Shown here one piece after another: positions 563-33,500 of a stretch of 64,000 bases of DNA. The position numbers and the translations under genes are program-made. The notes under the pieces were generated by a model, which ran no database searches, was not told the DNA's origin, and worked only from the letters and a program-made list of their open reading frames with translations. This stretch comes from Patescibacteria group bacterium. GTDB taxonomy: Bacteria > Patescibacteriota > CPR2 > UBA1875. The stretch lies in NCBI GenBank assembly GCA_028694925.1, contig JAQVJW010000002.1:9797-73796 (forward strand), in the 5' to 3' direction. How positions within the stretch are numbered: the stretch's first letter is position 1; each line of letters starts with the position of its first letter.

Positions 563-565
563 CTA

Positions 566-1528: not shown

Positions 1529-1644
1529 TTGTCTTGGAGGTGTGTGCACACTTCAAAAAATTGTGACCGGACAACAGGTTCAATATTTAACTTTTAACTT
1601 ATGATTTATCTTTCTCCAAGGCTGATTCATTCTTTGGCTTCATC

Positions 1645-3167: not shown

Positions 3168-3171
3168 ATAT

Positions 3172-3336: not shown

Positions 3337-3339
3337 AAA

Positions 3340-3531
3340 ATGAGCGGAACTAAAAGGGGCGGTATTAAAGCTGCTGAAACAAACAAGAAAAGACATGGAG
3401 CCAATTTTTACAAAGAGATTGGTGCCAAGGGTGGATTGAAAACTGGTGTGAAAAAAGGATTTGCGGCTAACACCAATCTTGCCCGTCTAGCGGGTCAAAA
3501 AGGTGGAAGGATTTCAAAAAGAAAAGCTTGA
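3340..3531 (+). CDS. Small KGG-repeat stress-induced protein (two KGG motifs)
   Basis: GANFYKEIGAKGG and LAGQKGG fit the KGG stress-protein repeat. It is a duplicated paralog of 2744..2872. Confidence 0.55.
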   Translation: MSGTKRGGIKAAETNKKRHGANFYKEIGAKGGLKTGVKKGFAANTNLARLAGQKGGRISKRKA

Positions 3532-3562
3532 ATATCTATCAAATAATTTAAAGGTATAACAA

Positions 3563-6229
3563 ATGACAAAAGGACTTTTATTCAAAAAGTTTGTCCTACA
3601 CTTACACACTCCCGGATCAAGTGATTGGAAGGGTGGGAATAAAGCGGCTGAGGATATAGTAAAAAAAGCAATCGAGAAAGAGCTGGCTGCTATAGCAGTC
3701 ACTGATCATAACTCAGGTGATTTTGTCGATGAAATGAAAAAAGCTGCTGAGAAAACTAGTTTAGTGGTATTCCCTGGGGCTGAAATTGTTGCCACGGGCG
3801 GTAAGAAAGGCATACACTTAATTGTCATATTTGACGTCGATAAAAACTCCGCTCATGTAAAAGCTTTTTTAAATACAATTGGGATATATAAAAAAACTGC
3901 TGCCGCAGATAAAACAGTTAATGAGATAGCCCGTAAGCTAGAAGAGTTTGACCCTTCTGCAATTATCATTCTTGCCCACTGCCATTCTAGTAAAGGAGTA
4001 TCTGGCGATATGCAAGGGGAGGTTAGGGCTAACATTTTTAACCAGAAGAATGATTGTATTTTAGCTGCTGAGGCGGCTAGAAGCGACTTTGAAGCTACCG
4101 AGAAAATAGAAAAGCATACAAGAGTCATTGATCTACTCGATGGAAGTAATCCGAACTTCGGGAAGAAAAAGTTAGCCGTTATACAGGCTGCGGATTCTCA
4201 TGATCTGGACTCTGTGGGTGACAAATTTACTTATTTGAAAGTAGATGAAGTAATAACAATTGAAGATTTAAGGCAGGCCTTTATAGATAGGGAGACAAGA
4301 GTGAGGCAACCTTGGGAATATACAGAGAGTCAGTTTCCTAAAATATTGAGGGTAAAAGTTAAGAGCGGATTCCTGGATGGAGAGGAAGTTGAGTTTAATG
4401 ACGGTCTAAACAGTATTATAGGTTCAAAAGGATCTGGTAAATCATTACTAGTTGAATTACTAAGGTTTGCACTTAGCCAGGAATCACACATTAAGGCTGT
4501 TTCAGAGGATCACTTTTCTAAATTAGAGAATTGTTTAAAGTTACATGGGGTAGTAACCGTGACATTTTCAGACAAAACCGGGCATCTGTATGAATTGGAA
4601 AGGACGTATGCACCCTCAAGTGAAAGCCCGACCAGAATAACTGATTTAGAGGACGGGTCAATTAAAAGTTTTGATGTAGAGACCCTCTTCCCTATTTTAT
4701 TCCTAAGCCAAAATGAGGCTATTAGAATCGCAGAGGAGAATGGGGGTGAGAACCAAAGGAGATTTATAGATAGATTCTTCGATTTTCATAAATATCAGTC
4801 GGAGATTAAAAGGCTAAACAAAAGACTAGCTGAAATTGATACTCGCTTCGCTGATGCAATAGAATCAAAGTTTAAGTTAGGAGTTGTTCAAAAAGAGCTT
4901 GCTACATTAGAAGAAGAGGTTGCGAAACTAGATAGGCAAATGAAAAAAGATATATTCGCGGAGTATTCAGAAAAGGAGAAGATTAATATTAGCATCCGGA
5001 GTAAGTTAGATTTTTTCGACTCGTTAGAGTCGGGCCTTGAGTCAATAATAATTGATTACAGGGATATTCAAGAAAATAGTACAGCAACAGATGGGCCAGA
5101 CGATCCAATAATAAAAAGGTCAAACGAGATACTCCAGGGCACAACGAATAGTATAGTTGAGGGCTTATCGGGAATAAAAGATTTGATTGGGGCTGAAAAG
5201 AAAAAATTTAAAGCAGAGGTAGACGATTGGGATAAAAAGTTTAAGTCAATTAAAAATAGTTATCACGACGCTGTTCTAGAGGCCGGAGGTAGTCAGGTTG
5301 TCTTAAACGAACAAAGAGAAGGGGTATTGGCACGTATAAAAGAAAGGAAAAAAGAAGAGGCGTTTCTTAAGAGTAAAACCGTTTTATTGAATTCATTGGC
5401 TGATGAGCGGAAGAGTCTATTACGGGGGCTAGAAGAAACAAGAAAGGCTTATTACGATCAAAGAAAAGAGAGGTGTAAATATTTATCCGAAAAATCTTCT
5501 GGTTTGGTAAAGGTTTCGATTAAGGAGATGGAAGATAAGTCAGTATTTAAACAAAAATTACTTGCATTAAAAAAAGGTTCTTGGATTTCGGACAAGGATA
5601 TGGAAATTATGGCAGAGAAAATTAAGCCCAAAGACCTTGTTAGCTCTCTGATCAACTATGCGAATGGAACCAGAGAAAAAAGTGTTAAAAAAGTAATCTT
5701 AGCAACTGATATTGATGAAAAAACGGTTGAAAAATTATTTGACTTTTTAACAGGGAGTTTAGATGTTAGGGAGATCCTGGCTTTAATGTATGACTCTGTT
5801 CCGGAAGACGTTCCGGTTATTAAATATAAAGTGGGGACGGGGGAATACAGAGAATTAAAGGATCTTTCAACTGGGCAAAAGGCTTCTGCCTTACTGATAG
5901 TCGCTCTGACTGATGGTGACTTCCCAATTATTATCGATCAACCAGAGGATTCGCTGGATCTCGTTTCAATTTGGAATGATGTATGTGAAAACATTAGGAA
6001 AACTAAAGAGAAAAGGCAATTTATTTTTACTACACATAATTCTTCAGTCGCGGTGGCCTCTGACTCCGATAATTATATAATTTTAGAAGCTGATGCTACA
6101 ACCTGTAGAGTTGTTGTATCTGGGTCAAATAATTCTACTGAAGTTAACGATAAAATCGTAAGCTACCTTGAGGGAGGAAAGCCTACCTACGCCCTCAAGA
6201 GGAGAAAATATATCAATAAAAGAAAATAA
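3563..6229 (+). CDS. PHP-domain phosphoesterase fused to an SMC/RecF/SbcC-like ABC ATPase with a long coiled-coil insert (Ppl-like defence protein architecture)
   Basis: PHP motifs are HLHTPGSSD, AVTDHNS, AHCHSSKG and AADSHDLD. The Walker A is GSKGSGKSLL. A coiled coil of about 350 aa follows. The ABC signature is STGQKASALL, the Walker B/D-loop is IIIDQPEDSLD and the H-loop is FTTHNS. Confidence 0.75.
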   Translation: MTKGLLFKKFVLHLHTPGSSDWKGGNKAAEDIVKKAIEKELAAIAVTDHNSGDFVDEMKKAAEKTSLVVFPGAEIVATGGKKGIHLIVIFDVDKNSAHVKAFLNTIGIYKKTAAADKTVNEIARKLEEFDPSAIIILAHCHSSKGVSGDMQGEVRANIFNQKNDCILAAEAARSDFEATEKIEKHTRVIDLLDGSNPNFGKKKLAVIQAADSHDLDSVGDKFTYLKVDEVITIEDLRQAFIDRETRVRQPWEYTESQFPKILRVKVKSGFLDGEEVEFNDGLNSIIGSKGSGKSLLVELLRFALSQESHIKAVSEDHFSKLENCLKLHGVVTVTFSDKTGHLYELERTYAPSSESPTRITDLEDGSIKSFDVETLFPILFLSQNEAIRIAEENGGENQRRFIDRFFDFHKYQSEIKRLNKRLAEIDTRFADAIESKFKLGVVQKELATLEEEVAKLDRQMKKDIFAEYSEKEKINISIRSKLDFFDSLESGLESIIIDYRDIQENSTATDGPDDPIIKRSNEILQGTTNSIVEGLSGIKDLIGAEKKKFKAEVDDWDKKFKSIKNSYHDAVLEAGGSQVVLNEQREGVLARIKERKKEEAFLKSKTVLLNSLADERKSLLRGLEETRKAYYDQRKERCKYLSEKSSGLVKVSIKEMEDKSVFKQKLLALKKGSWISDKDMEIMAEKIKPKDLVSSLINYANGTREKSVKKVILATDIDEKTVEKLFDFLTGSLDVREILALMYDSVPEDVPVIKYKVGTGEYRELKDLSTGQKASALLIVALTDGDFPIIIDQPEDSLDLVSIWNDVCENIRKTKEKRQFIFTTHNSSVAVASDSDNYIILEADATTCRVVVSGSNNSTEVNDKIVSYLEGGKPTYALKRRKYINKRK

Positions 6230-6233
6230 GGTG

Positions 6234-7040
6234 ATGAATGTAGAAAAGGGACCACTCGAGCAATCATATGAACTCGCCAATCTTGCTACTTTTGATGCGA
6301 CTGCTTTTGTGGGAGACGAGTCAGCATCTCAAGAGCTTTGTGACTTTATTTTGACGTTGGCAGTTATGTGCAATGAGCTGAAAGATTTGTCGAACATTAA
6401 AAAAGAAATTATAACAACCAGTCCAGTTAAGATAGACTCCCAATTGATTACTCCTCAAAAGGGTAATCTGGGGGGTTATTTGGCATTTATTTTGAGATTA
6501 TATATCTTGAAAGTTTATGAAATGTCGGAATTATTTCGTTCAAGTCTAGTTCTAATAGAATCAAGTCAATTTGAGGTTTATCTTAAAAAAATTAGCAAAA
6601 AACAAAGAGAAATGTGGGACTCTTCAGTAGCAATGCTTACCAATAATAAGGCCGACGGTAAGTTTAATAAGGTATTAACAGTCGTGAGACACAAGACAGC
6701 CGGACATTGCGAGGCCAAAGAAATAGCTAAGGGATATCGTTTTTATTTTATAGATAGAAAAGGTATGGAGCCTTACATTTCGTTTGGTGATGGTATACCG
6801 TCAACCAGGTTTCATTTTGCAGATGCGGCAATGGAAGGCTACCTACTTAAGAAACACAAAGATCTTTCGGCGGGGTATATTGAAAAGGAAATGGATGAGC
6901 TAATTAGCTATCTGTACAATTCGGTCTGGTTGTTAGTAGGTAAGTTTGTTAATTCCAGGAGTTCTTGGAAAAAACCGACCGAAGACAAATTGCCTGAGCC
7001 AGAGGGTTTTGGGGTTAAGGGTTTAAGGTCAAAGTTATAA
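6234..7040 (+). CDS. Hypothetical protein, tightly coupled partner of the PHP-ATPase
   Basis: The ATG lies 4 nt after the upstream stop. It encodes 268 aa with no recognisable motif. The ORF track entry 6168..7040 includes an upstream overlap. Confidence 0.5.
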   Translation: MNVEKGPLEQSYELANLATFDATAFVGDESASQELCDFILTLAVMCNELKDLSNIKKEIITTSPVKIDSQLITPQKGNLGGYLAFILRLYILKVYEMSELFRSSLVLIESSQFEVYLKKISKKQREMWDSSVAMLTNNKADGKFNKVLTVVRHKTAGHCEAKEIAKGYRFYFIDRKGMEPYISFGDGIPSTRFHFADAAMEGYLLKKHKDLSAGYIEKEMDELISYLYNSVWLLVGKFVNSRSSWKKPTEDKLPEPEGFGVKGLRSKL

Positions 7041-7296
7041 AGTCGTTCCTATATTTTCGCCAAATGGAACACATATCAAATAGACCATTTTATCGGCCTA
7101 TTTCTAATAATGACACAGGAAACTACCATGCTGAGGTAAAAGTTTCTTATTGTTATTATGTACTGTGAGGATTTTTCCTTAAAATTAAAAGATATGCAGA
7201 AGATCGCTCCACCTCAGCATATGTTTACAAAGTAAACCTATTTACCTCCCTAAAAAACGTGAATATGTAGCAAAATTGTTATAGATTCACGTTATA

Positions 7297-7325
7297 TTGA
7301 CAAATAATCGTGAATTATATATAAT
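7297..7325 (+). promoter_or_regulatory. Consensus sigma70-type promoter (TTGACA-17-TATAAT) for a near-leaderless Fic transcript
   Basis: TTGACA at 7297-7302, a 17-nt spacer and TATAAT at 7320-7325. The Fic ATG at 7338 is only about 6 nt past the predicted TSS. Confidence 0.5.
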
Positions 7326-7337
7326 AAATATAGTATT

Positions 7338-8228
7338 ATGGCAATTTCTAAAAATATTAGAAAAAATCTAAACAATCTTAAACGAGAGTATGATTCCTTA
7401 AAGAAGGGCAAAGAATCTCTTTTGGATATGCTATTTGAGGTAGAAATTCCAGAGTCAGTCTATAACTCTAACGCTATTGAAAACTCAACCCTAACCATCA
7501 AAGAAACAGAAAAGATATTAATGGAGATGGAGGTTTCTAGGGATGTCTCTGTACGTGAAGTCTTTGAAGCAAAAAACTTGGCAAAAGTCTTTGAATTTAT
7601 TAAGGCCCAATCCCAAAAAGATAATTTGGATAAAGAGTTTATTTTACTAATCCATAAAATGTTAATTGATAATATTAATGGAAATATTGCTGGAAGATTT
7701 AGAAAACCCGGTGAATATGTCCGAGTTGGTACTCATATTGCCCCAGCACCAGAACAGGTACCAGACCTTATAGAGTCAGCTCTGTTGGAATATTCTAGTA
7801 ATTTAAACTCCTATTTTCTGGAAAAAATTCCCAAGTTTCACCTAGAGTTCGAAGATATACATCCTTTCTGCGACGGCAATGGGCGTATTGGCAGAGTAAT
7901 CCTTAACTATCAACTAATGGATCTTGGATTTCCGCCTATTATTATAAGGGATAAAGAAAAAGCTGATTATTACCAATCATTCAGGGAATACAATATTAAG
8001 AATAAAACTGACCAAATGGAAAGGGTTTGCTATCTAGCGCTTCTAGAGTCTTTTCATAAAAGAATTACCTATTTAAAGGGTCAAAAAATCATTACATTGG
8101 CAGATTATGCTAAAAGAAATAAGGAGCCACTTAATGCCCTTTCTAATCGAGCTAAAAGACAAACGATACCTGCCTTTAGGGAAAAAGGCATCTGGAAGAT
8201 TGGTAAGGAGTATAAGAAATATCTCTAA
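7338..8228 (+). CDS. Fic/DOC family protein, class II (N-terminal inhibitory SxxxEN motif)
   Basis: Canonical Fic motif HPFCDGNGRIGR, with an upstream inhibitory-helix motif SNAIEN. Confidence 0.85.
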   Translation: MAISKNIRKNLNNLKREYDSLKKGKESLLDMLFEVEIPESVYNSNAIENSTLTIKETEKILMEMEVSRDVSVREVFEAKNLAKVFEFIKAQSQKDNLDKEFILLIHKMLIDNINGNIAGRFRKPGEYVRVGTHIAPAPEQVPDLIESALLEYSSNLNSYFLEKIPKFHLEFEDIHPFCDGNGRIGRVILNYQLMDLGFPPIIIRDKEKADYYQSFREYNIKNKTDQMERVCYLALLESFHKRITYLKGQKIITLADYAKRNKEPLNALSNRAKRQTIPAFREKGIWKIGKEYKKYL

Positions 8229-8315
8229 TGAGTGCTAGTATGTTTAGTTTAGGTGACATATAGGATTATTGCAGAACCTTCATTATCAGCGCTATAATGT
8301 ATAAAAGGAGGGAAA

Positions 8316-16747: not shown

Positions 16748-18394
16748 ATGGCCGAAATCACAGAGAATCACAAATTTACGCGAGCACTTGAGATATTTCC
16801 TGGCGCTCTGGCTTGGACAATTATTCTCTTCCCACTTCTTGCGAGTCCCTTTTTCCCAATGGCCGTTGCCATTTTTATTATAATCTTTAATATTTACTGG
16901 GTCGCGAAGGCCTTAAATATGATTAGACACCTCCTTTCCGGCTATTTTAGGATGAAGCGGAACATGAGTATTGACTGGCTCAAACGTACTCAAAAAGTCA
17001 GTAAAAGCTACAAGAGCCTTATAACAGAATTAAAGAAAGAGTTTGCGAGGCGTCCCAGCCTCTATTTAAGGGAAGATATTGCTGAGCTTGAAAATCTTCT
17101 TGAGCTTAAGAATCCGGTAAAAAAATATGAGGATATTTACCATCTTGTTATTGTTACAAACTACAAAGAAAGTTACGAAATTACCTATCCGACTTATGAT
17201 GCAATTAGAAGGTCAAACTATTCCAATAAGAAGATTATTGTTCTTGGAACCGGTGAAGCCTCACGTGACAAAAAAGGTTGGGACGGGGTCAAAAAGAAAC
17301 TCAAAAAAGAGTTTGGAGATTCTTTTGCCGGCCTTTTCTTTAATGACCATTATGATAAGCCGGGAGATGTTATTGGCAAAGGTCCAAATCTTTCCTCAGC
17401 TGGATATGAGGCGCTTAAGTATCTTAAGAAGGAATGGCCAAATCTTGCTCCAGAGAATGTGATGGTGACTACGCTTGATGCCGACCATATCGTCGAGACA
17501 AACTACTTTGCAAGGTTAACCTATAAGTACATTATCGACCCAAACAGACTAGAAAAGACCTATCAACCGGTTGGCCTCCTCTTTAATAACATCTGGGACG
17601 CTCCCGCCCCAAATAGGATTGCGGCTATTGCCTCTTCCTTTTGGCAAATCATTGAAGGGATGCGCCCCTATCGGTTACGTACTTTTGCGTCACATGCTCA
17701 ACCTCTCGCGACCCTAATTAAGACGGACTTTTGGAGTACAAAGACAATTGTTGAAGATGGGCACCAGTATTGGCGTACCTATTTTGCTTTTGGCGGGGAT
17801 CATGATATGGTCCCACTCCTTATTCCGGTCTATCAAGACTGTGTTCTCGCCGAAAAATTCGTCGATACCTTCAAAAATCAATACAACCAACGGAAGCGTT
17901 GGGCTTGGGGAATTTCAGACTTTCCCTATGTTGTGAAGATGTCCATTCGTCACAAAGAGATACCGTTGCATGAACGGCTCCTTCAGATTTTTAGGCTCCT
18001 TTCGGGGCATATCTCTTGGTCTACCGCCTCGCTTTTTTTGGCTTTTGCCTGGCTACCTCTGACAATCAACCGCTCTTTTCAGGATACGGTCATGGTTCAT
18101 AATATGATGACCTATGGCTCGCTTCTTATGCGCGTAGCCTGGCTTGGGATTGTTGCTAATGCTTGGGTCTATCTTTCTCTTTTGCCACAACGCCCCGAGA
18201 GGTATGGGCCACATCGCTATATTAATATGATTGCTCAATGGGTATTTATTGCCCCCGTCTCCATTTTTATATCCTCCATCCCGGCTCTTGAGGCCCAGAC
18301 TCGATTAATGCTTGGTAAATACATGAACGTTTTTTGGCTCACCCCTAAATATCGTCGTGAGAGCCCTCTTTTTGGGGCTCATAAGAAGAAATAA
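16748..18394 (+). CDS. Membrane-embedded family-2 glycosyltransferase with QxxRW motif (processive beta-glycan synthase-like)
   Basis: TLDADH (DxD) and QRKRWAWG (QxxRW), with N- and C-terminal TM clusters. Confidence 0.6.
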   Translation: MAEITENHKFTRALEIFPGALAWTIILFPLLASPFFPMAVAIFIIIFNIYWVAKALNMIRHLLSGYFRMKRNMSIDWLKRTQKVSKSYKSLITELKKEFARRPSLYLREDIAELENLLELKNPVKKYEDIYHLVIVTNYKESYEITYPTYDAIRRSNYSNKKIIVLGTGEASRDKKGWDGVKKKLKKEFGDSFAGLFFNDHYDKPGDVIGKGPNLSSAGYEALKYLKKEWPNLAPENVMVTTLDADHIVETNYFARLTYKYIIDPNRLEKTYQPVGLLFNNIWDAPAPNRIAAIASSFWQIIEGMRPYRLRTFASHAQPLATLIKTDFWSTKTIVEDGHQYWRTYFAFGGDHDMVPLLIPVYQDCVLAEKFVDTFKNQYNQRKRWAWGISDFPYVVKMSIRHKEIPLHERLLQIFRLLSGHISWSTASLFLAFAWLPLTINRSFQDTVMVHNMMTYGSLLMRVAWLGIVANAWVYLSLLPQRPERYGPHRYINMIAQWVFIAPVSIFISSIPALEAQTRLMLGKYMNVFWLTPKYRRESPLFGAHKKK

Positions 18395-18449
18395 CTTCTT
18401 TTGCTTGACGGCATAATTATTCGGGGCTACTATCTAACTAGGAGTAACT

Positions 18450-18785
18450 TTGGATCGTAAGAAATTTTTTGATTTACTAAAGAATTTACAAACCATTATG
18501 CGTTGTCCTTCTTGTGGGGCGCTTTATGATGTCGAAGAGATTCAATATGTTGGTAACCAGGATGGCTATTTCCTACTTTCAATGACTTGTAGTAAATGCT
18601 CTCTTCCGGTTTGGGTCAACTTCTTTGCTGGAAGCGAGCGAGAACCCGTTATTGCAAACGATCTAACAATTACTGATTCTCATTTTTTAGAACGAGAACC
18701 TATTTCATCTGATGAGGTTCTCGATTTTCACACCTCACTTAAAAGTTTTAGTGGAGACTTTAAAAAGGCTTTCAAGGTAAAATAG
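18450..18785 (+). CDS. Zinc-ribbon hypothetical protein
   Basis: Two CxxC pairs: CPSCG...CSKCS. Confidence 0.35.
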   Translation: MDRKKFFDLLKNLQTIMRCPSCGALYDVEEIQYVGNQDGYFLLSMTCSKCSLPVWVNFFAGSEREPVIANDLTITDSHFLEREPISSDEVLDFHTSLKSFSGDFKKAFKVK

Positions 18786-18854
18786 CTCACCTACTATCAA
18801 AGATTATCCTTTACCTTAGGGGCTTTTTTTGATATACTTTTCTTCGTAACTTCA

Positions 18855-19574
18855 ATGGAAAAGATAACTCTAAAAGCAGAAATCCGTGACGCACGGAAGG
18901 AAAAGAATAATAGATTACGGGAAGAGGGTAAGCTCCCGGCCGTTATTTATGGTAAGGGTAAAGAGAGTAAGCCACTTACCATCTCAGCGCAGGAATTTGA
19001 AAAGGTCTACCGAGAAGCCGGTCAGTCGGCTCTTTTGGACCTAATACTTCCAGGTGGGACAAAGAAGGTTCTAATCCAAGATGTCAGCGAACACCCTGTT
19101 CGAGGGAACGCCGAACACATTGATTTCTATGAAGTCTCGATGACCGAAAAGATTACAACGGCCGTGCCACTTAAATTTGTGGGTGAATCAACTGCAGTTG
19201 TCGATCAGTCAGGAACCTTAATTACGAATAAGGATGAAGTTGAAGTTGAGTGTCTACCGGTTGACCTGCCACACGAGATTGAGGTAGACATCTCGGTTCT
19301 AACTGATTTTGAAAAGTCTATTCACGTTTCTGATATTAAGGTGCCAGAAGGAGTCACTATAAAAGATGAAATAGAGGAGACAATCGTCACAGTTGAGCCA
19401 CCTCGAAGTGAGGAAGAACTAGCAGAACTAGAAGAGCCACTCGAAGAAGCCGAAATGCCAGAAAGCGAACACGGTGAGGAAGGTGAAGAGGCTGAAGGTG
19501 AAGCCAAAGAAGGTGAAGAAGGCGCAGCTGAGCCTTCAGAAGCTGAGGGCAAAGAAGAGAAGAAGGAAGAATAA
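18855..19574 (+). CDS. rplY: 50S ribosomal protein L25/general stress protein Ctc, with an acidic C-terminal tail
   Basis: LPAVIYGKGKESKPLTISAQEF and a beta-barrel region, plus an E-rich tail. Confidence 0.85.
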   Translation: MEKITLKAEIRDARKEKNNRLREEGKLPAVIYGKGKESKPLTISAQEFEKVYREAGQSALLDLILPGGTKKVLIQDVSEHPVRGNAEHIDFYEVSMTEKITTAVPLKFVGESTAVVDQSGTLITNKDEVEVECLPVDLPHEIEVDISVLTDFEKSIHVSDIKVPEGVTIKDEIEETIVTVEPPRSEEELAELEEPLEEAEMPESEHGEEGEEAEGEAKEGEEGAAEPSEAEGKEEKKEE

Positions 19575-19605
19575 AAGAGGACCTACTGGGTCTTCTTTTA
19601 TATTG
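19575..19605 (+). terminator. Rho-independent terminator of rplY
   Basis: A 9-bp stem (AAGAGGACC / GGTCTTCTT, with one G-T pair), a 5-nt loop and a TTTATATT tail. Confidence 0.5.
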
Positions 19606-19795
19606 GTTAGTGTGCGGTGCGGCTTGCCAAATGGAACGCAAATCAAATAAACCGTTTGTATCGGTCTATTTCTATTAATGATGCAAAAACACTAGCCTGC
19701 TAAGCACTTTTTATGTTAATATACTCACGAGAATTCAATCGGAGGGTCGCACCAGTAATGGTGTGACCCTCCTCGAATTAGTACAGGAGGATGCT

Positions 19796-20128
19796 ATGTC
19801 TACTTCTGCGAGTACAATCAGTGGGGCGTTGAACCTTCTGAATCTCAATTTGAGGTTTAGAGATGCCATCAAGCCATTGTCTCAGCACGAACTATCACGG
19901 TATCACCGCAGGGCTGTTGCCCAGCGTCTCGACAATCTTCAGGACGTCGTCCGCGAATGTTCCAAAGAAGACGTTTTGACCACAGTCATCATTCCAACGG
20001 AAGACGAGATTTGGGACTCGTTCTGGGTCAAACTGATTCGTCGGGCTATCTATCTTCTGGCGCAGTTGTTGCGTTGGAGAATGGCTCTCTCGAAGCAGTC
20101 GGGCATTGAGTGGCGAATTCCGAGTTAG
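19796..20128 (+). CDS. Hypothetical protein in a GC-rich insert
   Basis: Strong AGGAGG RBS 5 nt before the ATG. Local GC is about 52% against about 40% for the window. No recognisable domain. Confidence 0.35.
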   Translation: MSTSASTISGALNLLNLNLRFRDAIKPLSQHELSRYHRRAVAQRLDNLQDVVRECSKEDVLTTVIIPTEDEIWDSFWVKLIRRAIYLLAQLLRWRMALSKQSGIEWRIPS

Positions 20129-20158
20129 TGCGTCGCGACTACATCCAGGAGGTGCGTT

Positions 20159-20527
20159 ATGTCGGGCCCATTTGGACCTTGGTTCGAAGACAGGCCAAAG
20201 GAAGGCTGGGATGGAGTTACTGTCCATGTGTCCGAAGGCAGAATACCTCAGGTGATCGAAGCTATTGAGCGTATTGAGAGCCGTCGGGACATCCAATCCC
20301 ATCTTCGGATCGTTCACGCACTGCGAGGTGAAGAGCTTGTTGTCAGCGTAGTTGCAGGCGACCTCGCTCGGTTCTACTCTCGCGTCATCATTCCTCTGGG
20401 AACTATCGTCCCCGGTTCGATGCCGCACATGATTACGGCTCAGGTGAAATTCGAGTCGAATTCACCTTCGAGCCGTAATCACAACGACCGCCAATCAACG
20501 GAAACTTATAATTGTGAGGACCGCTGA
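20159..20527 (+). CDS. Hypothetical protein in a GC-rich insert
   Basis: AGGAGG RBS 6 nt before the ATG. It is followed by a GACCGC-TGAAAG-GCGGTC hairpin. No recognisable domain. Confidence 0.4.
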   Translation: MSGPFGPWFEDRPKEGWDGVTVHVSEGRIPQVIEAIERIESRRDIQSHLRIVHALRGEELVVSVVAGDLARFYSRVIIPLGTIVPGSMPHMITAQVKFESNSPSSRNHNDRQSTETYNCEDR

Positions 20528-20597
20528 AAGGCGGTCTTCACTTTATGAAGTTCATGCATTTCTCGCTTCGTTGAATAAGATGTACAACACCCGCCGA

Positions 20598-20620
20598 GTA
20601 TTGCGACAAAATGTCGCAAT
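20598..20620. promoter_or_regulatory. Palindromic operator-like site ATTGCGACA-aaa-TGTCGCAAT upstream of the AbiEi promoter
   Basis: Perfect 9-bp inverted repeat. It shares the core GTATTGCGACA with the operator at 39308..39356. Confidence 0.5.
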
Positions 20621-20657
20621 TTGCCCAGACTGGTAGTTGAGTATAGTGTCTTTTTAC

Positions 20658-20686
20658 TTGACAAGGGTAGCTCTATTTGCTAAAAT
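20658..20686 (+). promoter_or_regulatory. Sigma70-like promoter (TTGACA-17-TAAAAT) for abiEi-abiEii
   Basis: Consensus -35 and a near-consensus -10 lie about 40 nt upstream of the ATG at 20727. Confidence 0.45.
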
Positions 20687-20726
20687 ACTTCTAAAGAGTG
20701 TTATAAATAACATTTATTGAAAGTAT

Positions 20727-21356
20727 ATGAAGTATCTAAACCTTAAAGAAGAGCTCAGTGATTTCATCATCTTTTCACTTTTGGATATCAAAAAAATCGA
20801 ACCAAATTTTGACCGCAGACGTTTAAGCGAGTGGCAAGATAAGGGATATATTCAAAAGGTGCGAAGGGGTTATTATATTTTTTCAGATCTTGAAATAACC
20901 GACGAAGTTTTGTTTCTAATCGCTAATCGGCTATATGTTCCATCATATATTTCATTAGAGATGGCACTAAACTATTATGGACTAATTCCTGAGGGGGTCT
21001 ACAGCCTTACCTCTGTTACAACCAAGCTGCCTAAGGATTTTAAAGCTCCAATTGCAAACTTTAGTTATCGACAGGTTAAACCAGAATTATTCTTTGGGTA
21101 TCGCCTAGAAAAAGTTGGCAATCAAAATTACAAAATTGCAGAAATAGAAAAGGTGGTTCTAGATTACCTTTATCTCAATCCAGAGATGGATAATGAGGCT
21201 AATTTTTCAGAATGGCGTTTTAATTTTGATACCTTTCGGGAAAAGGCAGATATGGAGAGGTTTGCTACATATCTAAGTAATTTTAATAGTCCCAGCTTAA
21301 ATACTCGGGTTAGGAAGTTTATAAAACATATGGAGAAACATAATGTTAACAATTAG
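20727..21356 (+). CDS. abiEi: AbiEi antitoxin-family transcriptional regulator (type IV TA/Abi)
   Basis: AbiEi_4-like N-terminal wHTH. Overlaps the downstream AbiEii gene by 14 nt. Confidence 0.75.
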   Translation: MKYLNLKEELSDFIIFSLLDIKKIEPNFDRRRLSEWQDKGYIQKVRRGYYIFSDLEITDEVLFLIANRLYVPSYISLEMALNYYGLIPEGVYSLTSVTTKLPKDFKAPIANFSYRQVKPELFFGYRLEKVGNQNYKIAEIEKVVLDYLYLNPEMDNEANFSEWRFNFDTFREKADMERFATYLSNFNSPSLNTRVRKFIKHMEKHNVNN

Positions 21357-22122
21357 TCAGATAGAGGAACAATACCCCGAAAATCTAAGGCCTTTTAAGA
21401 GAGGTATTTTACGGGAGTATTTACAGTACAAGATATTAGAAATTATTTTTAACTCAAAATATGCTGGCAAGCTTTCATTTCTTGGTGGTACGGCACTCCG
21501 TATTGTATACGGTAACACCCGTTTTTCTGAAGATTTAGATTTTGACAACTTTGGACTTTCAGAAGAAGAGTTTAGCGAAATTGCTACAATAATCAAAAAG
21601 GGTCTTTCAGCTCAAGGTCTTATGGTTGAAATGAACACGATTTCTAAGGGCGCCTTCCGGTGCAATATTCGTCTTCCCGGGGTTTTCTTTGAAAACGAAC
21701 TTTCTGGACATCCGGAAGAAAAGATTTTGATTCACATAGACACCGTGTCTCATAAATTTGACTATAGACCAGATAAAAAGATTCTAAACAAATTTGATGT
21801 CTTTTCGGAAATATTTGTAACACCTCTTGATATTATTCTCTCTCAAAAGTTTTATGCAACCGTAAATCGAAAAAGAGCGAAAGGTAGAGACTTTTTTGAT
21901 ATTATGTTTTTGCAATCACGAACTAAGCCTAATTATGACTATCTAAAAGAGAAAATAGGGATAACAAACAGCAAAGAATTAAAGGCCTTGCTAGCAGTTG
22001 AATTTAAAGATTTAAATTTCAAAGAATTGGGCCGAGATGTTCAGCCCTTTTTGTTTAATCCAACCGACGCCAAGAGGGTTGAAAAGTTTAAAGAATTTAT
22101 CGAAGAAGCCGATTTGGGTTAA
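21343..22122 (+). CDS. abiEii: AbiEii/AbiGii nucleotidyltransferase toxin (DUF1814)
   Basis: FLGGTALRIVYGNTRFSEDLDFDN, a Pol-beta-type NTase motif typical of AbiEii. Confidence 0.85.
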   Translation: MLTISQIEEQYPENLRPFKRGILREYLQYKILEIIFNSKYAGKLSFLGGTALRIVYGNTRFSEDLDFDNFGLSEEEFSEIATIIKKGLSAQGLMVEMNTISKGAFRCNIRLPGVFFENELSGHPEEKILIHIDTVSHKFDYRPDKKILNKFDVFSEIFVTPLDIILSQKFYATVNRKRAKGRDFFDIMFLQSRTKPNYDYLKEKIGITNSKELKALLAVEFKDLNFKELGRDVQPFLFNPTDAKRVEKFKEFIEEADLG

Positions 22123-22204
22123 GGGGTTCCATCGCCCGTGTACATATCAATATGACGTTTAGAGAGATAATAAATATAAATGTTAAAAAGAAAAGGGTAA
22201 AAAG

Positions 22205-22618
22205 ATGAAAGCAAAATTGACAAAACAACAGATAGACGAACTATGGGGTCAAGATGGCCCTTATTCTGAGGTTAGGTTAGTGATTGAAAAAAGAATCTTA
22301 GACGATCAAATTAGTCGAGAATTTTTGGTAGTAGAAACTAATATCAATCCTTTTACTTTTAAGTTTATTAAAAAGAATCGTAAACTCTTTAAAGATAGCG
22401 AGATGATTCAACAACTACTTAACAACTCAGAGTATCGGGGTCCAGCTTTTGGCTACGTTAGCAATGCTTTTTGTGGTCATTATACAGGGGAAGATGTCAT
22501 GGAAAAGGCAGAAAAGGCAGCCGCTAGGTCATCCAAGCTAATAATCGAATTACATAAGTTTGTGATGGATTCGCTTGGTATAGATAAGAAAGATATTTAC
22601 CGAAAATATATGAGCTGA
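22205..22618 (+). CDS. Hypothetical protein
   Basis: 137-aa ORF with a plausible RBS and no motif. Confidence 0.35.
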   Translation: MKAKLTKQQIDELWGQDGPYSEVRLVIEKRILDDQISREFLVVETNINPFTFKFIKKNRKLFKDSEMIQQLLNNSEYRGPAFGYVSNAFCGHYTGEDVMEKAEKAAARSSKLIIELHKFVMDSLGIDKKDIYRKYMS

Positions 22619-22683
22619 TTAAAATGATCTTATTTCCCCCAATGAACTAGTGACTCCTTCCCTGTTCTTGCTATAATAATCAT

Positions 22684-23745
22684 ATGCAAAAGATAAAAAA
22701 TTTCTTTCTCAGGGTCGGACACTTCATAAAAAAGCACAAATGGTCGATACTACTGATTGGTGCGGCACTTCTGGTGGGGGGCTTTTTTGTTTGGGATAGC
22801 TACTCGGCTCAAAATGGTTCATTGTTGTCTTTGGTTGTAGATGAAGAAAAGGAACCAGAGCTTCTCGCGGCCCCACTTTCTGGGATTATGGTTGGGGAAA
22901 GTGTGGTCGAAAGAAGGCCAATTGCAATAGTGGTTGAAAATCATCCTGATGCCCGGCCCCAATCAGGACTCCTTATGGCCGATATGGTCTTTGAGACGTT
23001 AGCCGAGGGTGGAATCACAAGGTTTTTAGCGATCTATCATTCACAAACTCCTAAAGAAGTTGGGCCAGTACGCTCGGCCCGGCCATATTTTGTTGAGTGG
23101 GCTGACTCTTTTGATGCGCTTTATGCTCATGTCGGGGGAAGCGATGAAGGACTTGCCCTTATAAATCGCCTCTCGGTTGCCGATATTAATCAATTTGCCT
23201 TTGGAAACTTCTTTTGGCGCGATAACACGCGCTATGCTCCCCATAATGTCTATACTACACTCGATAAAATATATTCTGCCGCAAAGACAAGAAATTATGC
23301 TCTAACGCAGGATAATTTAAAGCCATATTCCTTTAAAGAAGAAGCAAAAGAAGAAGAGCGACCCGAGGCCCAGAAGTTTACAGTTAATTTTAACTATAGC
23401 TTTGCACCCACCTATACCTATAGTAAGGATTGTAACTGTTACCTTCGTTCAATCTTGGGTCAAAAGCACCTAGATTCTTCCGGCAAACAACTCTCGGCCA
23501 AGAATGTAATCGTGGCTTTTTCTGATATGGGGCAACAAATCGTGAGGGGTACTGGCTACACCGTGATCGATACTGATGATTCGGGTACGGCCTACTTTTA
23601 TATTGATGGCATAAAACAGGTCGGTAAGTGGAGCCGAGCGGTGGGAGAGCAAATAAAGTTTTATGATGCTGAGGGTCAGGCTGTTGCGCTAAACCCTGGT
23701 ACTACCTGGATAGATGTCGTCCCTGAGGGTACTTCGGTTAAATGA
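22684..23745 (+). CDS. DUF3048-domain protein (YerB-like), membrane-anchored
   Basis: N-terminal TM, then IAIVVENHPDARPQSGL...GGITRFLAIYHSQ...GPVRSARPYFVEWA, typical of DUF3048. Confidence 0.65.
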   Translation: MQKIKNFFLRVGHFIKKHKWSILLIGAALLVGGFFVWDSYSAQNGSLLSLVVDEEKEPELLAAPLSGIMVGESVVERRPIAIVVENHPDARPQSGLLMADMVFETLAEGGITRFLAIYHSQTPKEVGPVRSARPYFVEWADSFDALYAHVGGSDEGLALINRLSVADINQFAFGNFFWRDNTRYAPHNVYTTLDKIYSAAKTRNYALTQDNLKPYSFKEEAKEEERPEAQKFTVNFNYSFAPTYTYSKDCNCYLRSILGQKHLDSSGKQLSAKNVIVAFSDMGQQIVRGTGYTVIDTDDSGTAYFYIDGIKQVGKWSRAVGEQIKFYDAEGQAVALNPGTTWIDVVPEGTSVK

Positions 23746-27527: not shown

Positions 27528-27572
27528 ATTTGTTTTTGTTTGCATAAGCACGCAAAAAAATGTAAAATTGAA

Positions 27573-30500
27573 ATGTCAGTTAAGGGGGTAGACCTGAAGA
27601 GGAAGGGAAAGACAGAAAAGGTTTTCTATAACCTCGGCTTATTCATAAATCGAGTTCGATTAGCATACCTTGAAGGGCTTAATAAAACGCATCTTAAGAT
27701 CCGTAAACTCCATGATGTGACCTACCAAAGAGGTGGGAAGTATAAGGCTTGGAGTGATAAACCATATTCATCCACTATTCACAAAACCGCTATGATAACT
27801 TTTATTGCTTCTTTTGTGATCTTTTCACTCGCCCAAAACATTTTCCCAAATCTCTTTAACCTCACAATCCCCAACAATGCCCTGGCGGGGTCAACTCAAG
27901 TTGTTTGGACGACCAAGGACCACTTTGAGAATAATGGCGCTACAAATTCCAATTATACTGGTGCGACAACCTCTACAGACGTGGTTATAAGTGGGGATAA
28001 CAATGATGTAACTGACTCCAATAATAATGACGATATAACACTTGGAAATCCTGATATAAATTTTGATACAATTTCGATATCTGAAGGTTATAATTATTCA
28101 TTAGCAATTAAGACTGATGGATCGCTATGGGCTTGGGGGTCTAACTCTAGTGGACAGCTTGGCTTGGGCGATACTACAACAAGGACAACACCAGTTCAAG
28201 TTGGTTCATCTATTGATTGGAGTTATATTGATACAGACGGTTCTTTGAATCCTAGTTCCTATGGCATTAAAACCGACGGCACATTATGGGCTTGGGGCGA
28301 AAATGAATGGCGACAACTTGGGCTCGGAGATACAACTGATAGATTAGTGCCCACTCAGGTGGGAACTTCCACAAACTGGAAAAGAGTTTCGGCTGGGGGT
28401 TCATTTGCGTTAGCAATTAAAACAGACGGCACATTGTGGGCTTGGGGGTCTAACTCTAGTGGACAGCTCGGCTTGGGCGATACTACAAATAGGTTGGTTC
28501 CAACCCAAGTGGGAGTCGGTGTGAATTGGGATTCCCTTGATACCGCTGAAGGAAGCTCCTTTGCAATAAAAACAGATGGCACATTATGGGCTTGGGGCGG
28601 CAATTATTATGGTCATCTTGGGCTCGGAGATACCACAAATAGGTTGGTTCCAACCCAAGTGGGATCTGATACTGATTGGAAGATCGTAAATACTGAAACA
28701 CCAAATATTTTTGGAGAAAGTTCTTTCGCAATAAAAAATGATGGAACATTGTGGGGTTGGGGCTATAATTATTCTGGTAGCTTGGGTTTAGGAGACACTA
28801 GTCCTAGACCTACTCCCACCCAAATCGGGACCGATACAAATTGGAAATATGTATTTGCGGGATCACATGCGGTAGGAATTAAAACAGACGGCACATTATG
28901 GGCTTGGGGGTCTAACTCTAGTGGAGAGCTTGGCTTGGGCGATACTACAAATAGGTTGGTTCCAACCCAAGTGGGATCTGATACTGATTGGAAGATGATT
29001 TCAGCTCCTAGGTCGACTACTATTGCTACCAAAACGAACAATACATTTTGGGGTTGGGGTTACAATGCTTATTCACAACTTGGTTTAGGCGATACAACAA
29101 ATAGGTTGGTCCCAACCCAAGTGGGATCTGATACGGATTGGCTTGGGGTTGTTGTGGAATATCCATCGACAGGTTCTCTTACAGAACTAAAAGTTGATGC
29201 TGGTTCTGGTAACAAAGCTTCTTGGGCTAGTGTCTCCTGGAACGAAGAAATACTTGCAAATACCGACATTATTTTTAACGTCCGCACTTCAGACGATAAT
29301 GCAACCTGGAGTGATTGGAGTGCTGATTTAACGACACCCGGTGGGTCTAGTTTATCTTCCGCTGACCCTTCTAGGTATCTTGAAATTAAGGTAACCCTTT
29401 CTAGTTCCGACGGACTCAACACCCCAACCCTAAATGATTTCACGGTTACCTACGACACCCTCGAAGCCCCGGTTAATGAAAACATCGTTCTTACAAAGAC
29501 CGATGACTCTAGCCTATATACTTCATCTGGTACCCTAGTATCAGGTGGCATAGCTGGTGCCTATAGTAACGAATCATCTCTAAGAATTTCTGCCACTGGT
29601 CTTACGTGTGGCGGAGGTGATTCTGGAGAGCCAGCTTGTGAAGGTACTTCTACAAACATTAGACCCGAGGTAGAAGTCTCAAACATCACTGATACAGACT
29701 TTTCAACCCCAGTCTTTACGGGAGAAGCCGCTCAAGGCTCTGACTACGTTGATGCTACGGGCCTTACGGCTGGTGAATCATATCATATTAGAGTTCGAGC
29801 GATTGATGATGAGGGAAGAGTCTCTGCTTGGACCAATTATGTTGGTGATGCTACGGCCATAACCATTGAACAAACCCCACCGACGGGGACGGTTGTGATT
29901 GATGAAGGGGAATATACTAAAGATGCCACAGTTAATTTGAATCTATCCGCAGCGGATGAAGGTGGCTCAGGGCTTTCCCAAATGCGATTTAGTAATTCTG
30001 GTGCTGAGGGGCAATGGAGTGATTGGGAAACATATGCAACCTCTAAGGCTTGGGATATTACAAATGCTACTTATGGTGGTAACACTAACGAAGAAGAAAA
30101 GACTGTTTATGTGCAGTATAAAGACAATGCAGGGAATATAAGTGGAACATGGCTACAGACGAGTGATGAGGATTTTAATGCAGGGACAAAAGACCAAATA
30201 TCTGTTTCAGGTGACTTATATAGACTAACGATGGATTGGATATTAGGTCCAGTGGCTGGGATTGAGGTATACAAAGAAGATCAAATTGGAGCAGCTTGGC
30301 AGACTTCAAACACTGACTGTCCCGCACCTCAATGCAACGGATCATATCTCGTTGATCCTTTTTTGAATCCAGAGGTTGATTTTTCGGCTTATCCTGCTCA
30401 GAATGCCTGTAAGAACATTGGGGGAAGATTGCCCACCCCTGGTGAATTGGGCGATATTTATACTTATAAGTTGGATTATGGTAATAACTTTACGTATCAT

Positions 30501-33500
30501 ACTTCTTTTTATCACTGGACAAATGCAGAAACCTTTCTAGGATCTGATGCTTTTTTCCAATATTTCTCCACTGGCCTCACTGGTGCCAGAGCGAAAAACC
30601 AGCTACATTATTCTAGGTGCGTAAGGAGCGAAGGAACTGGTTCAAATGAATATAGTACAACAGGGGTTTATACCTCTTCTGTTAAGGACAACATCAATTT
30701 CAAAAACTATAGCCGCTTACACTGGTCAGCTAATATTCCCTCAGAAACAGGCGCTGATGCGCTTCGATTCCAGGTAGCCTCAAATAACGACAATGTAACC
30801 TGGAACTATGTTGGCCCAGATGGAACGGCCGGGACATACTATGATGCCGACGACAATGGCATACAAATACATTCCTCGCACAACGGACACAGATATATAA
30901 GATATAAAGCCTATCTTCAAACAGCCAATTCTAGTTATACCCCCACTGTTTATGATGTTGGAATCGAAGTTCTAAGCATTAACGCTTCCATCCTTTACGA
31001 CCACACTCCTCCCGCAAACACTGAAGCAACTATCACCTATCCTACTGCTGGGGAATCGCTTATTGGTGCCACCGAAGAAGAGATAACCTGGGATGATACC
31101 AAAATAACCGACCCAGGCGATAATGCCTCTGGCCTTTTGGCTGATGGCACGACGGCCATTACCATTCAGTTTACTTCTGATAATGGTAACAACTGGAGTA
31201 CAGTAGAATCCGGTCTTCCTAACTCTGGCTCATATACCTGGACTGTCCCTAATAACTCAACCTGCGTTAACCAGTGTCGCATTGCCGTTCTGGCTCAAGA
31301 TAAAGCCGGTAATGAAAACACCCCTGCGGATGCCAATACTACCTCGGCCCTCTTTTCCATCATTGCCGACTCTCAAGCCCCTCAGTGGGATGCAGGAACA
31401 GTTCTTGACGTAAGTAACACCAAGTATATTAGTGGAGCCACTACTTGGACCGATGCTACCCCAACCCTATCCTGGACTCCTGCTCCAACTGACCCCGCCC
31501 CTGGAAGCGGTATTGCCGAATATGAAGTTATCTTTGAAGGTGCCACAGCCGAAACTATTACTGGTCTTACGACCACTGAAGCCACTCCAACTCTCGCAGA
31601 AGGAGTCCATGAGTGGTATGTAAACGCGATTGATGGGGCCGGCCTTTCTGCTAATACTAAAGATGAACTCTCACGTACGAAAACCATTTCGGTAGATGCC
31701 ACTGCTCCGAATGCAACCCTAAATATTATTTCCCTTACAGGTGGTGCGGCTACTAACTCTTGCACTGTAGCGATTAACCTTGCCGATCAGGTGGAAGTAG
31801 GTTCAGGGATTTCCTCGATCCAGTATTCCAATGACGAACTTATCTGGAGCTCCCTTGGCGAGGGTTCCACCTGGGATCTTTGTTCGGCCAGCTCTACTAA
31901 AGGTACAAAAACAGTCTACGCCCGCCTAATCGATAATGTGGCTAATCAACGAACCATTTCAAGTACCATCCTTTATGAAGATACACTACCCACGAACCCC
32001 TCTGCTGTAACGGCGACCCTTGTTCCCCCAGGGGATGTGCCATCTACCTATGTCGATGATGCTTGGGTTGGTAACTCCTCAATCTCTATCGAGTGGAGCG
32101 GTGAAATCGATCCTGAACCAAACTCAAGTGGCGTTGCGAGTTACGTTGTCTATCGCTCCACAGATAACGGTGCCTACACCGAAGTTTCGGCTGATTCGGC
32201 TTCCCCCTATGTAGATACGGGTCTCGTTGATGGTCATAATTACAAATATATTATTAAAGTGATTGATGATGCCGGTAATAGCTCCCTTTACCAGACAAAC
32301 CCAGTAATTGGGGAACTTAATGTAGCCGATATTACGAGTCCCGAGCCACCTGAAAATTTCAATGCCTCGGGAACAGATTCAACAACAATTGATGTTACCT
32401 GGAACTCGGCGCCGGAAAACTCAATCTCTCACTCTGGTAAGGCCGATAGCTATACAATTGAAAGAACGGCTGATAGTGCCTTGGGTTCTTCTGAGCCAAC
32501 TAATGATGATACCTGTAATACCTATACCTATTCTGATACCATTCAATCGCCAATTACTTTTGAGCAAGGTGGAGTTTATGATCCCGGTAACGATAAGTAT
32601 ACTATTACCGATACGGTTAATGCTGAAGAGTGGTACTACTACCGAATAAAAGCAATTGACGAAAGACCCTCTGACTCTGACTATACTTGTTTTAAGGCTC
32701 GCGGTAACTTTGCGCCTGAATTCCCTCAAGAGAATATCAACCTTAGTGCAGATACTGTGGTCCCTGGCGATGAAGTTACCATTACATTTACAGCAACTGA
32801 CTTTGATGGGGCCACCGACCTTGATACTGGTAATGCCATCCAACAACTTAAAATCCAAGATGGGGCCCTGGCCGAAGTCCTTGCCTATACCGAGGTTACC
32901 GAAAAAGAAGCATATAATGACGGTGCCCGTTATGGCTACACCTATACCTATGGCTACACTGTCCCAGAGACGGCTAAATACGGCACCTATACCGTAACCA
33001 TTAATGTGGCTGACTCTGTAGCAGTTGGTAGCCCGGGTGATAACTTCCATAATCAAACCAAACAAGTGCAGTTTAAGGTGCCACCAGCCGCTCCAACCTC
33101 ACTTTCGGCTACTGGCTATACCTCAACAAGTGTTAATCTTACCTGGACGGCTCCCGGGAATGCCGGAAACCAGGCTGGGCTTCGAGGGACTAACCCTTAC
33201 TCCGTAAAAAGAAGGTCTTATGGTAGCTCTGATCCTTTTGTTCATCTTGCCTATTCAAATGCCACCTCATATACTAACTCCGGTCTTGCCTTGGGGACTG
33301 CCTATGAATACCAAGTAGTTGCCTTTGATATCAATGGGAACGAGGGTCCCGCGTCAAATAACTCTAATGCTATTCCGCCAGCCCCAGCGACCCCAGCGTC
33401 AGCGACCGTGCGTGACGCTTCTCATACCTCAATCGATTTAGGGGGTACCTACCCATTACGTTACTTTGTGACTTGGGATGCGGTTACCGAATCATCTGTC

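Follow-up and report, generated by a model that had tools for sequence, protein, structure and literature searches.

A GC-rich mini-cassette with a putatively tRNA-derived, promoter-bearing head in an accessory insertion of a Patescibacteria genome

Little is known about how Patescibacteria, whose genomes are tiny, acquire and exchange accessory genes. Here, we analyzed a GC-rich block of about 0.9 kb in a 64,000-nucleotide stretch of DNA from a Patescibacteria group bacterium (GenBank assembly GCA_028694925.1, contig JAQVJW010000002.1, positions 9,797 to 73,796 of the forward strand), hereafter the window. Upstream of the block lies rplY (L25/TL5), and downstream lie the genes for AbiEi and AbiEii. 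The block belongs to a cassette of ~0.94 kb (window positions 19605–20546, + strand) that consists of a conserved AT-rich head of ~130 nt (module U), a stem-loop in the 5' untranslated region (UTR), two open reading frames (ORF1 and ORF2), and a terminator-like hairpin. The block is a real, horizontally acquired mini-cassette that carries accessory cargo.

Layout and coding content of the GC-rich block

GC content was compared across windows of equal size within the 64-kb window. The span of the two ORFs (19796–20527) has a GC content of 52.0%, and 19700–20560 one of 50.5%, against a window mean of 41.1% (standard deviation 3.7). Just 0.17% of same-size windows reach the value of the block, and the GC maximum of the whole window lies here; composition is thus non-uniform on a sliding-window calculation. 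A first-pass annotation, made from the sequence of the stretch, had put the block at least 10 percentage points above its surroundings. This holds against the window mean (an excess of 11 points) and against abiE (34.6–35.1% GC, 17 points), but not against rplY (45.4%), which the block exceeds by only ~6.6 points. GC content at third codon positions (GC3) is 58.6% in ORF1 and 51% in the in-frame part of ORF2, compared with 31–45% in 23 other genes of the window; it is 60–63% in the homologues described below. The only other stretch of the window with a GC content of at least 50% (31318–32049) lies in a giant ORF of 2581 aa (27540–35285) that contains seven tandem repeats of ~150 nt (28085–29126).

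ORF1 (19796–20128, + strand, 110 aa) is predicted to be all-helical and belongs to an orphan family. ORF2, as read (20159–20527, + strand), has 122 aa and is co-oriented with ORF1 at a distance of 30 nt. Both Shine-Dalgarno (SD) sites that had been described at first pass are present, with AGGAGG at 19785–19790, 5 nt before the ATG of ORF1, and at 20147–20152, 6 nt before that of ORF2. The earlier statement that neither ORF has a recognizable motif was also borne out: neither gave a meaningful match to Pfam, PHROG, PADLOC, or NCBIfam models, and a comparison with the sequences in the PDB returned noise only. A tblastn comparison of ORF1 and the ORF2 homologue with phages (50,697 records), plasmids (72,556), and IMG/VR found nothing. 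Among 5.8 billion proteins, the only homologue of ORF1 was P0003 (85% identity), encoded at locus L003 in the Patescibacteria metagenome-assembled genome (MAG) UBA7522, and P0003 was again the sole match in an exhaustive profile search of 1.84 billion cluster representatives. ORF2 matched, in the 5.8 billion proteins, itself (in Logan assembly L001, from the same sample) and P0002 (73% identity), encoded at locus L002 in a Saccharibacteria MAG.

Substitutions relative to these homologues fall mainly at third codon positions. Between ORF1 and L003, the differences at codon positions 1/2/3 number 18/4/55, with 46 synonymous and 17 non-synonymous codon changes; for the N-terminal 80 codons of ORF2 and L002 they number 12/6/34. 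This pattern argues that ORF1 and ORF2 are both genuine coding sequences. It also bears on the possibility that the block is a structured non-coding RNA, or that its GC-rich sequence leaves the two frames open by chance. Islands of high GC content in AT-rich genomes frequently turn out to be RNA genes, and an antisense ORF of 177 aa does run over the block. Against this stand the strong three-base periodicity of substitutions in the sense frames, the stop codons that interrupt the antisense ORF in both homologues and mark it as spurious, and the absence of any Rfam match at E ≤ 1 on either strand of 18000–23000, so that we give such an explanation next to no credence.

Downstream of codon 80, ORF2 and L002 agree only in another frame, in which 8 of 12 differences are at third positions. 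Within a GGGAA run, ORF2 lacks one base between 20400 and 20401 (third position of codon Gly81), and therefore the last 41 residues of the 122-aa reading are out of frame; this out-of-frame tail extends into the loop of the terminator hairpin. The conserved frame resumes at 20398 and reaches a TAA stop at 20476–20478, giving a product that ends ...PLGNYRPRFDAAHDYGSGEIRVEFTFEP and a conserved C-terminus that reads ...PLG(N/D)YRPRFDAAHDYGSGEIRVEF(T/I)FEP*. Judged by this alignment, ORF2 is frameshifted in this genome, and its ancestral product would have had 106 aa. The frameshifted sequence is also present in the independent Logan assembly L001 (100% identity over 1500 nt) and is therefore not an artifact of one assembler, although it could still be a read-level error.

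The two hairpins that the first-pass annotation had placed at the flanks of the block were both found. At the 3' end, GACCGC-TGAAAG-GCGGTC (20519–20536, + strand) is directly followed by TTCACTTT, and the terminator-like element extends to 20546 with the tail TTCACTTTAT. A simple terminator scan did not call it. The hairpin is kept in L002, and L003 retains its 3' arm alone; the element as a whole (20519–20546) marks the right end of homology with both loci, and past 20546 the window has no significant similarity to the tail of either.

The 5' UTR stem-loop of the cassette mRNA (19741–19772, + strand) has 14 pairs, including one G·U, and is common to the window, L003, and L002. A 111-nt segment that contains it folds at –36.8 kcal/mol (z = –3.9). 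Across the three loci, 14 of 14 pairs are kept on the plus strand through G·U wobbles and one swap of G-C to C-G; on the minus strand, three positions become A·C mismatches, and the consensus energy is –20.6 kcal/mol, compared with –27.0 kcal/mol on the plus strand. The hairpin lies ~8–10 nt from the inferred transcript start, and its 3' arm carries CCCUCC, complementary to the SD of ORF1. We infer that it serves mRNA stability or translational tuning, rather than acting as a DNA operator.

The first-pass annotation had suggested that the two ORFs are an anti-defense or toxin-antitoxin (TA)-like pair. A type II TA system, or another two-component addiction or abortive-infection pair beside AbiE, would fit two small, co-oriented genes at so short a distance that have one promoter and one terminator in common, in insertions that are rich in TA or defense genes (AbiE in the window, HTH_17-Fic at L002). 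The intact pair was found in none of the three genomes (the window has ORF1 and the frameshifted ORF2, L002 has ORF2 only, and L003 has ORF1 only), which is also what one would expect of a costly two-component system that is inactivated by losing either part. Against a TA pair, no Pfam, PADLOC, PHROG, or NCBIfam model matched, and the phage, plasmid, and IMG/VR collections held no homologue. Moreover, the inverted repeat is conserved in the manner of an RNA hairpin on the sense strand and not in that of a DNA operator. Lone ORF1 (L003) and lone ORF2 (L002) both align with the window in a coding-type pattern indicative of purifying selection, although this pattern has accumulated over the whole divergence and not just since the loss of the partner. 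With ORF1 lacking ORF2 in one genome and ORF2 lacking ORF1 in another, one of the two genomes would hold an unguarded toxin, whichever the polarity, and an obligate TA pair is therefore unlikely. Overall, we regard any two-component addiction or abortive-infection system as improbable.

More likely, ORF1 and ORF2 are orphan accessory proteins, each acting without the other. The company that they keep at the various loci (AbiE, Fic, Nudix, and nucleotidyltransferase-like neighbors) permits a weak guess, purely through guilt by association, at a role in conflict or defense. As extreme orphans, with a single relative of ORF1 among 1.84 billion representatives, they could be lineage-specific conflict genes.

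Module U and its tRNA-like head

The first-pass annotation had noted copy B of a conserved element on one side of the block. The element is indeed present, but it is the head of the cassette and not a separate neighbor. This copy of module U spans 19605–19733 (+ strand; 19618–19733 without the tRNA-like head) and scores 121 bits with covariance model R1. It comprises a conserved core, GCCAAATGGAACGCAAATCAAATA (also given as GCCAAATGGAACGCAWATCAAATA), a hairpin, a TTCTATTAATGATGCA box (also given as TTCTATTAATGAYGCA), a CTGCTAAGCAC box, and an extended –10 element. Model R1 finds exactly two copies in the window, the other being copy A (7051–7170, + strand, 92 bits), 170 nt upstream of a Fic-domain gene (7338–8228) at the edge of a defense island; the 24-nt pattern of the core is not expected by chance within the window. 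Further copies lie in L002, L003 (two), and L007 (two).

The terminator-like hairpin of U, AAATAAACCG-TTTGTAT-CGGTCTATTT (19645–19671, + strand), shows covariation. Among six copies, 6 of the 12 pairs have changes on both sides, for example the compensatory change between GACCG...CGGTC and AGCTAC...GTAGCT stems, and 88.6% of cells are paired, versus 30–46% with slid partners. A terminator scan called this hairpin on the minus strand only. The CTGCTAAGCAC box and the extended –10 occupy 19697–19722 (+ strand), with TG at 19714–19715, TAATAT at 19717–19722, and a –35 that is off consensus; TGnTAnnAT is retained in 6/6 copies. This conservation suggests that the extended –10 works as a promoter. 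At L007, the ATG of a Nudix gene follows the –10 by 6 nt and has no SD, like a leaderless start.

Alignment of the DNA of the window, L002, and L003 revealed the modularity of the cassette. Module U and the 5' UTR hairpin are common to all three loci, ORF1 is confined to the window and L003, and ORF2 to the window and L002. The flanks differ: L002 has HTH_17-Fic and tRNA-Asp, with a 56-aa gene and a sortase gene downstream, and at L003 the next gene is recG. L007 (Ga0247841_10195192), the sole metagenome match, has two U copies 631 nt apart (176–925, minus strand), of which one heads the 129-aa Nudix gene and the other an unrelated gene with an SD. As judged from these arrangements, U acts as a movable head that brings a terminator and a promoter to diverse accessory genes. 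We also noted, upstream at L007, an oppositely oriented ORF of 144 aa that has a nucleotidyltransferase-like look and no Pfam match. L003 has two U copies at the contig end (1–345). A GC-rich stretch of ~45 nt interrupts the first, and after this copy come the start of the ORF1 5' UTR, in truncated form, and an NN gap. The doubling could be an assembly join within a repeat or a real tandem.

Three other readings of U were discarded. A small peptide conserved inside U was ruled out, the frame not being kept between copies, and so was an extracytoplasmic function (ECF)-type GGAAC...CGT promoter, whose would-be –10 lies in the variable hairpin. A resemblance of the core to a metG-like 3' end (L005, a Bacillaceae MAG; methionyl-tRNA synthetase C-terminus LPNGTQIK*; covariance score a weak 26.7 bits) was a chance match, with ~0.07 such matches expected by our own estimate from the pattern and the size of the collection. 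The metG-like reading was rejected because of an exact tRNA-Asp repeat at L002.

L002 contains an intact tRNA-Asp(GTC) gene at 4982–5058. The U copy of L002, 100 nt downstream, starts with 20 nt, AGCCCGGTCGGGATCGCCAA, that repeat the 3' end of this tRNA exactly (its final 19 nt and one more). When aligned to this repeat, the remaining U copies show the same layout, in which a T-loop-like 7-mer is followed by 5 nt, 7 nt, G, and CCA, and differ in the stem sequences. All of them begin at the same point, with ...TCGCCA or TTGCCA after the 7+5+7 layout. In the window, 19605–19629 (+ strand) aligns column for column with the L002 head and reads GG, the T-loop-like TTAGTGT, GCGGT, the acceptor-strand-like GCGGCTT, a discriminator G, and CCA (TTAGTGT-GCGGT-GCGGCTT-G-CCA at 19607–19629). 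By homology with L002, we infer that the head of U in the window likewise originated from a tRNA 3' end. Past its terminator, the L002 cassette has another U-head-like relic at its tail (p < 1/300 versus copy 1 of L007). Between the intact tRNA-Asp and the displaced 3' fragment at L002 lie ~80 nt with a terminator-like hairpin (5059–5139); these may be all that is left of a further integrated element after its near-complete deletion.

The foreign composition of the block, a self-contained architecture like that of phage morons, and the adjoining defense system would also suit a remnant of a prophage, plasmid, or phage satellite that carries, for example, anti-defense genes. The searches of phages, plasmids, and IMG/VR with the encoded proteins speak against such a remnant, as does the lack of a PHROG match. 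The U core, too, is absent from IMG/VR, and the nine matches there to the short U promoter pattern were all chance, none scoring with the covariance model at the matched position. We therefore consider a phage or plasmid remnant highly improbable.

The 3.04-kb insertion and its possible origin

Five relatives, ranked by L25 identity, were compared at this site: L008 (82%, from the same sample), L009 and L010 (69%), and L011 and L012 (65%). Where the contigs reach, the upstream order of a glycosyltransferase gene, an ORF of 94–111 aa, and rplY is kept. In L009–L012, rplY is followed after 63–66 nt by the genes for DUF3048, Nramp, a protein of 192 aa, an AI-2E transporter, and lactamase_B, as far as the contigs reach, and the same order resumes in the window with DUF3048 at 22684. 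In L008, 92 nt separate rplY from a gene that is cut at the contig end and whose identity was not assigned. The adjacency of rplY and DUF3048 in the relatives argues that the GC-rich cassette, abiEi/abiEii, and an ORF of 137 aa (22205–22618, + strand), the last gene before the junction, are a single accessory insertion of ~3.04 kb (~19613–22652). The 137-aa ORF is absent from the relatives and had no family match in Pfam, PHROG, PADLOC, or NCBIfam; it and abiEi/abiEii have a GC content of 35% each. The block is thus not simply inserted between rplY and abiE, as first annotated, since abiE was inserted together with it between rplY and the DUF3048 gene. The proposal that it is recently acquired cargo, on the other hand, stood up: far from holding conserved core genes, the site is empty in all five relatives (L008–L012), composition and GC3 are foreign, and the cassette recurs at unrelated loci in two MAGs.

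At the left junction, the break falls at TTAGTG (19607–19612), within the tRNA-like segment, and its TAGTG (19608–19612) pairs with a second TAGTG at 22648–22652, which lies in CTAGTGAC (22647–22654) and is followed by AC and the promoter region of the DUF3048 gene (TATAAT). In L009, the stretch that separates the rplY terminator from the DUF3048 promoter at the empty site reads TTCTTAGTGACTAAG. The TAGTG pair is suggestive of a crossover or a duplicated target.

The abiE module (20658–22122, + strand) has a promoter, TTGACA-17-TAAAAT, at 20658–20686 and encodes AbiEi (20727–21356; PADLOC, 1.5e-63) and AbiEii (21343–22122; PADLOC, 2.4e-98, with a Pfam AbiEii match as well). Between the cassette and this strong promoter, ~37 nt upstream of the –35, lies a palindrome with 10-bp arms, TATTGCGACA-AAA-TGTCGCAAT (20599–20621). 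The first-pass annotation had called it the AbiEi operator. The palindrome is present, but its assignment to AbiEi is unproven, as a second copy (39331–39353), with an extra half-site, lies over the putative promoter region of a Fic gene (38249–39292, minus strand). It may be an operator shared by two toxin modules, abiE and Fic; TATTGCGACA-N3-TGTCGCAAT was not found at the other loci.

Site-specific integration at tRNA genes leaves a recognizable signature of a regenerated tRNA, a displaced 3' fragment, and tandem fragment repeats (PMC4383910), and cis-mobilizable elements (CIMEs) are integrase-less units that retain attachment (att) sites and accrete in tandem (PMC5704250). With moderate confidence, we favor the reading that the cassette is a tRNA-headed, promoter-bearing islet without an integrase, which stems from tRNA-targeted integration and now resides within the 3.04-kb accessory insertion. 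In keeping with this, no integrase or recombinase domain was found in the 41 ORFs of the window that were scanned, which include every gene of the insertion. Module U would be the trace, at the tRNA-proximal end, of an integrative element that targets tRNA genes: such an element would supply a replacement tRNA 3' end, the U hairpin would stop read-through from the tRNA, and the U promoter would drive the cargo. Repeated rounds of integration and decay might then yield integrase-less, att-headed islets, comparable to CIMEs and stacked in arrays. In the window, the unit would sit at a secondary, non-tRNA site, having arrived either through an integrase acting in trans at the T-loop-like TTAGTG or through recombination after DNA uptake. 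Once there, the transcription unit would act like a phage moron, as a self-contained module of promoter, gene, and terminator, with the 5' stem-loop stabilizing the mRNA or tuning the translation of ORF1.

Several observations count against this origin. No tRNA gene is adjacent to the window cassette, and no statistically supported att-like repeat was found at the right end of either the cassette or the 3-kb insertion. The TAGTG duplication is just 5 nt long, short enough to have come about by chance. Among the known U copies, none is beside an integrase or directly abuts an intact tRNA. The U promoter has no –35 match and was not called by a sigma-70 consensus scan. Lastly, only seven or eight U copies are known, from four contigs only, and one scan each of species-representative genomes, JGI metagenomes, and IMG/VR turned up no further true copies.

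Alternatively, U may be a shared promoter and insulator for a lineage-specific regulon of accessory genes. The tRNA-like head would then be incidental, one copy happening to lie downstream of tRNA-Asp, and the cassette would have moved by ordinary recombination, homologous or illegitimate, following natural transformation. In favor of this, the promoter boxes and the CTGCTAAGCAC box are conserved better than any other part of U and precede diverse genes, an integrase was not found, and the window copy has no att partner. Such a regulon, however, would leave unexplained the exact 20-nt duplicate of the tRNA 3' end that L002 carries 100 nt from the tRNA itself, the common start point and 7+5+7 layout of every U copy, the U-head-like relic at the tail of the L002 cassette, and the tandem U-gene-U-gene arrays. 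For this reason, we think it rather unlikely.

If the cassette does derive from tRNA-targeted integration, it might belong to an undescribed family of miniature cassettes in Patescibacteria, including Saccharibacteria, with heads of ~110–130 nt (a tRNA 3'-end att relic, a terminator hairpin, and an outward extended –10). The cassettes would be captured and stacked at tRNA genes, or occasionally at T-loop-like secondary sites, by an integrase acting in trans. We put this forward only as a speculation, with doubts outweighing our confidence. If true, such cassettes would parallel integron cassette arrays, but with promoters of their own and a tRNA basis, and would shuffle orphan and defense or conflict genes among reduced genomes. 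The miniature, promoter-headed, arrayed form looks new, on the basis of four contigs only.

Taken by itself, the block is an unremarkable islet acquired by horizontal transfer, and one of its genes is already broken. The locus matters more as a concrete, testable example of a self-transcribing mini-cassette with a putatively tRNA-derived head, which occurs in three MAGs, each time at an unrelated locus, and which is related to the tandem U-gene arrays. Should the reading of its head as an att relic be right, it would point to a route of gene capture in Patescibacteria by site-specific recombination. The U core also provides a sequence tag with which more cargo could be found.

Other features of the window were recorded alongside. 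The defense island at its start (1–8300) comprises genes for a NOV_C protein (68–562), a C5 DNA methylase (Dcm, 566–1528), the restriction endonuclease Mrr (1645–2520), an 888-aa PHP and AAA/SMC-like ATPase (3563–6229), and a 290-aa partner without a family match (6168–7040), and ends with U copy A and the Fic protein (7338–8228). Between the Mrr and PHP-ATPase genes, two paralogous small genes (2739–2859 and 3335–3455, 77% nucleotide identity) that encode KGG-repeat-like stress peptides (MSGT(R/K)...AAETNKKR...) flank two small membrane-protein-like ORFs. At 57439–58698, tRNA-Pro(GGG) is directly followed by a low-GC (36%) AAA_14/DUF4143 ATPase gene; this may be a further case of an accessory gene beside a tRNA, and an integrase was not seen there. 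A transfer-messenger RNA (tmRNA) gene lies at 62517–62903 (tag peptide VKTLAAKVRNAFSMPALATVVA), and two paralogous ABC-transporter ATPase genes (35761–36007 and 60913–61159, ~71–72% nucleotide identity) are each followed by a gene of the size of a MacB/FtsX-type permease.

Comparison with known mobile and conflict systems

The cassette resembles tRNA islands and CIMEs (PMC4383910; PMC5704250) in having a fragment of a tRNA 3' end at the end of the element (the exact 20-nt repeat at L002), in the tandem units headed by the same repeat, in its foreign composition at a site that is empty in relatives, and in its lack of recombination genes. The flanking tRNA-end repeats are represented at L002 by the 20-nt repeat and the tail relic, and in the window by the left, diverged relic only. 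Unlike those elements, the units are tiny (0.6–1 kb, with one or two genes) and carry a conserved terminator-plus-promoter head; in the window, the unit lies away from any tRNA gene and lacks a detectable second att copy, and no cognate integrase is known. In the absence of a recombinase domain, the cassette could therefore only be CIME-like and non-autonomous.

Type II TA operons likewise have two adjacent genes of ~100 codons in one operon, in an accessory region beside TA or Abi systems. The cassette differs from them in that neither gene has homology to a toxin or antitoxin family, the genes occur separately elsewhere (as judged over three genomes), and the inverted repeat is an RNA hairpin.

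Phage morons, from the literature on HK97 and HK022, are reportedly autonomous units of promoter, gene, and terminator with deviant GC content that are inserted between genes. The cassette is similarly a self-contained unit with its own promoter and terminator, occupies an intergenic spacer, and deviates in GC content from its flanks. Unlike a moron, it is not in a prophage, has no phage homologues, and possesses a head that appears to be tRNA-derived.

Integron cassettes usually lack a promoter, have attC at their end, and rely on IntI and attI. No integrase, and thus no IntI, was found among the scanned ORFs of the window, and attC was not searched for with a dedicated model. Like integron cassettes, the units described here are small, carry one or two genes, form arrays, and have a conserved, recombination-site-like end with a hairpin of variable stem. 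In contrast to integron cassettes, this conserved end lies 5' of the gene, holds a promoter, and seems to derive from the 3' end of a tRNA.

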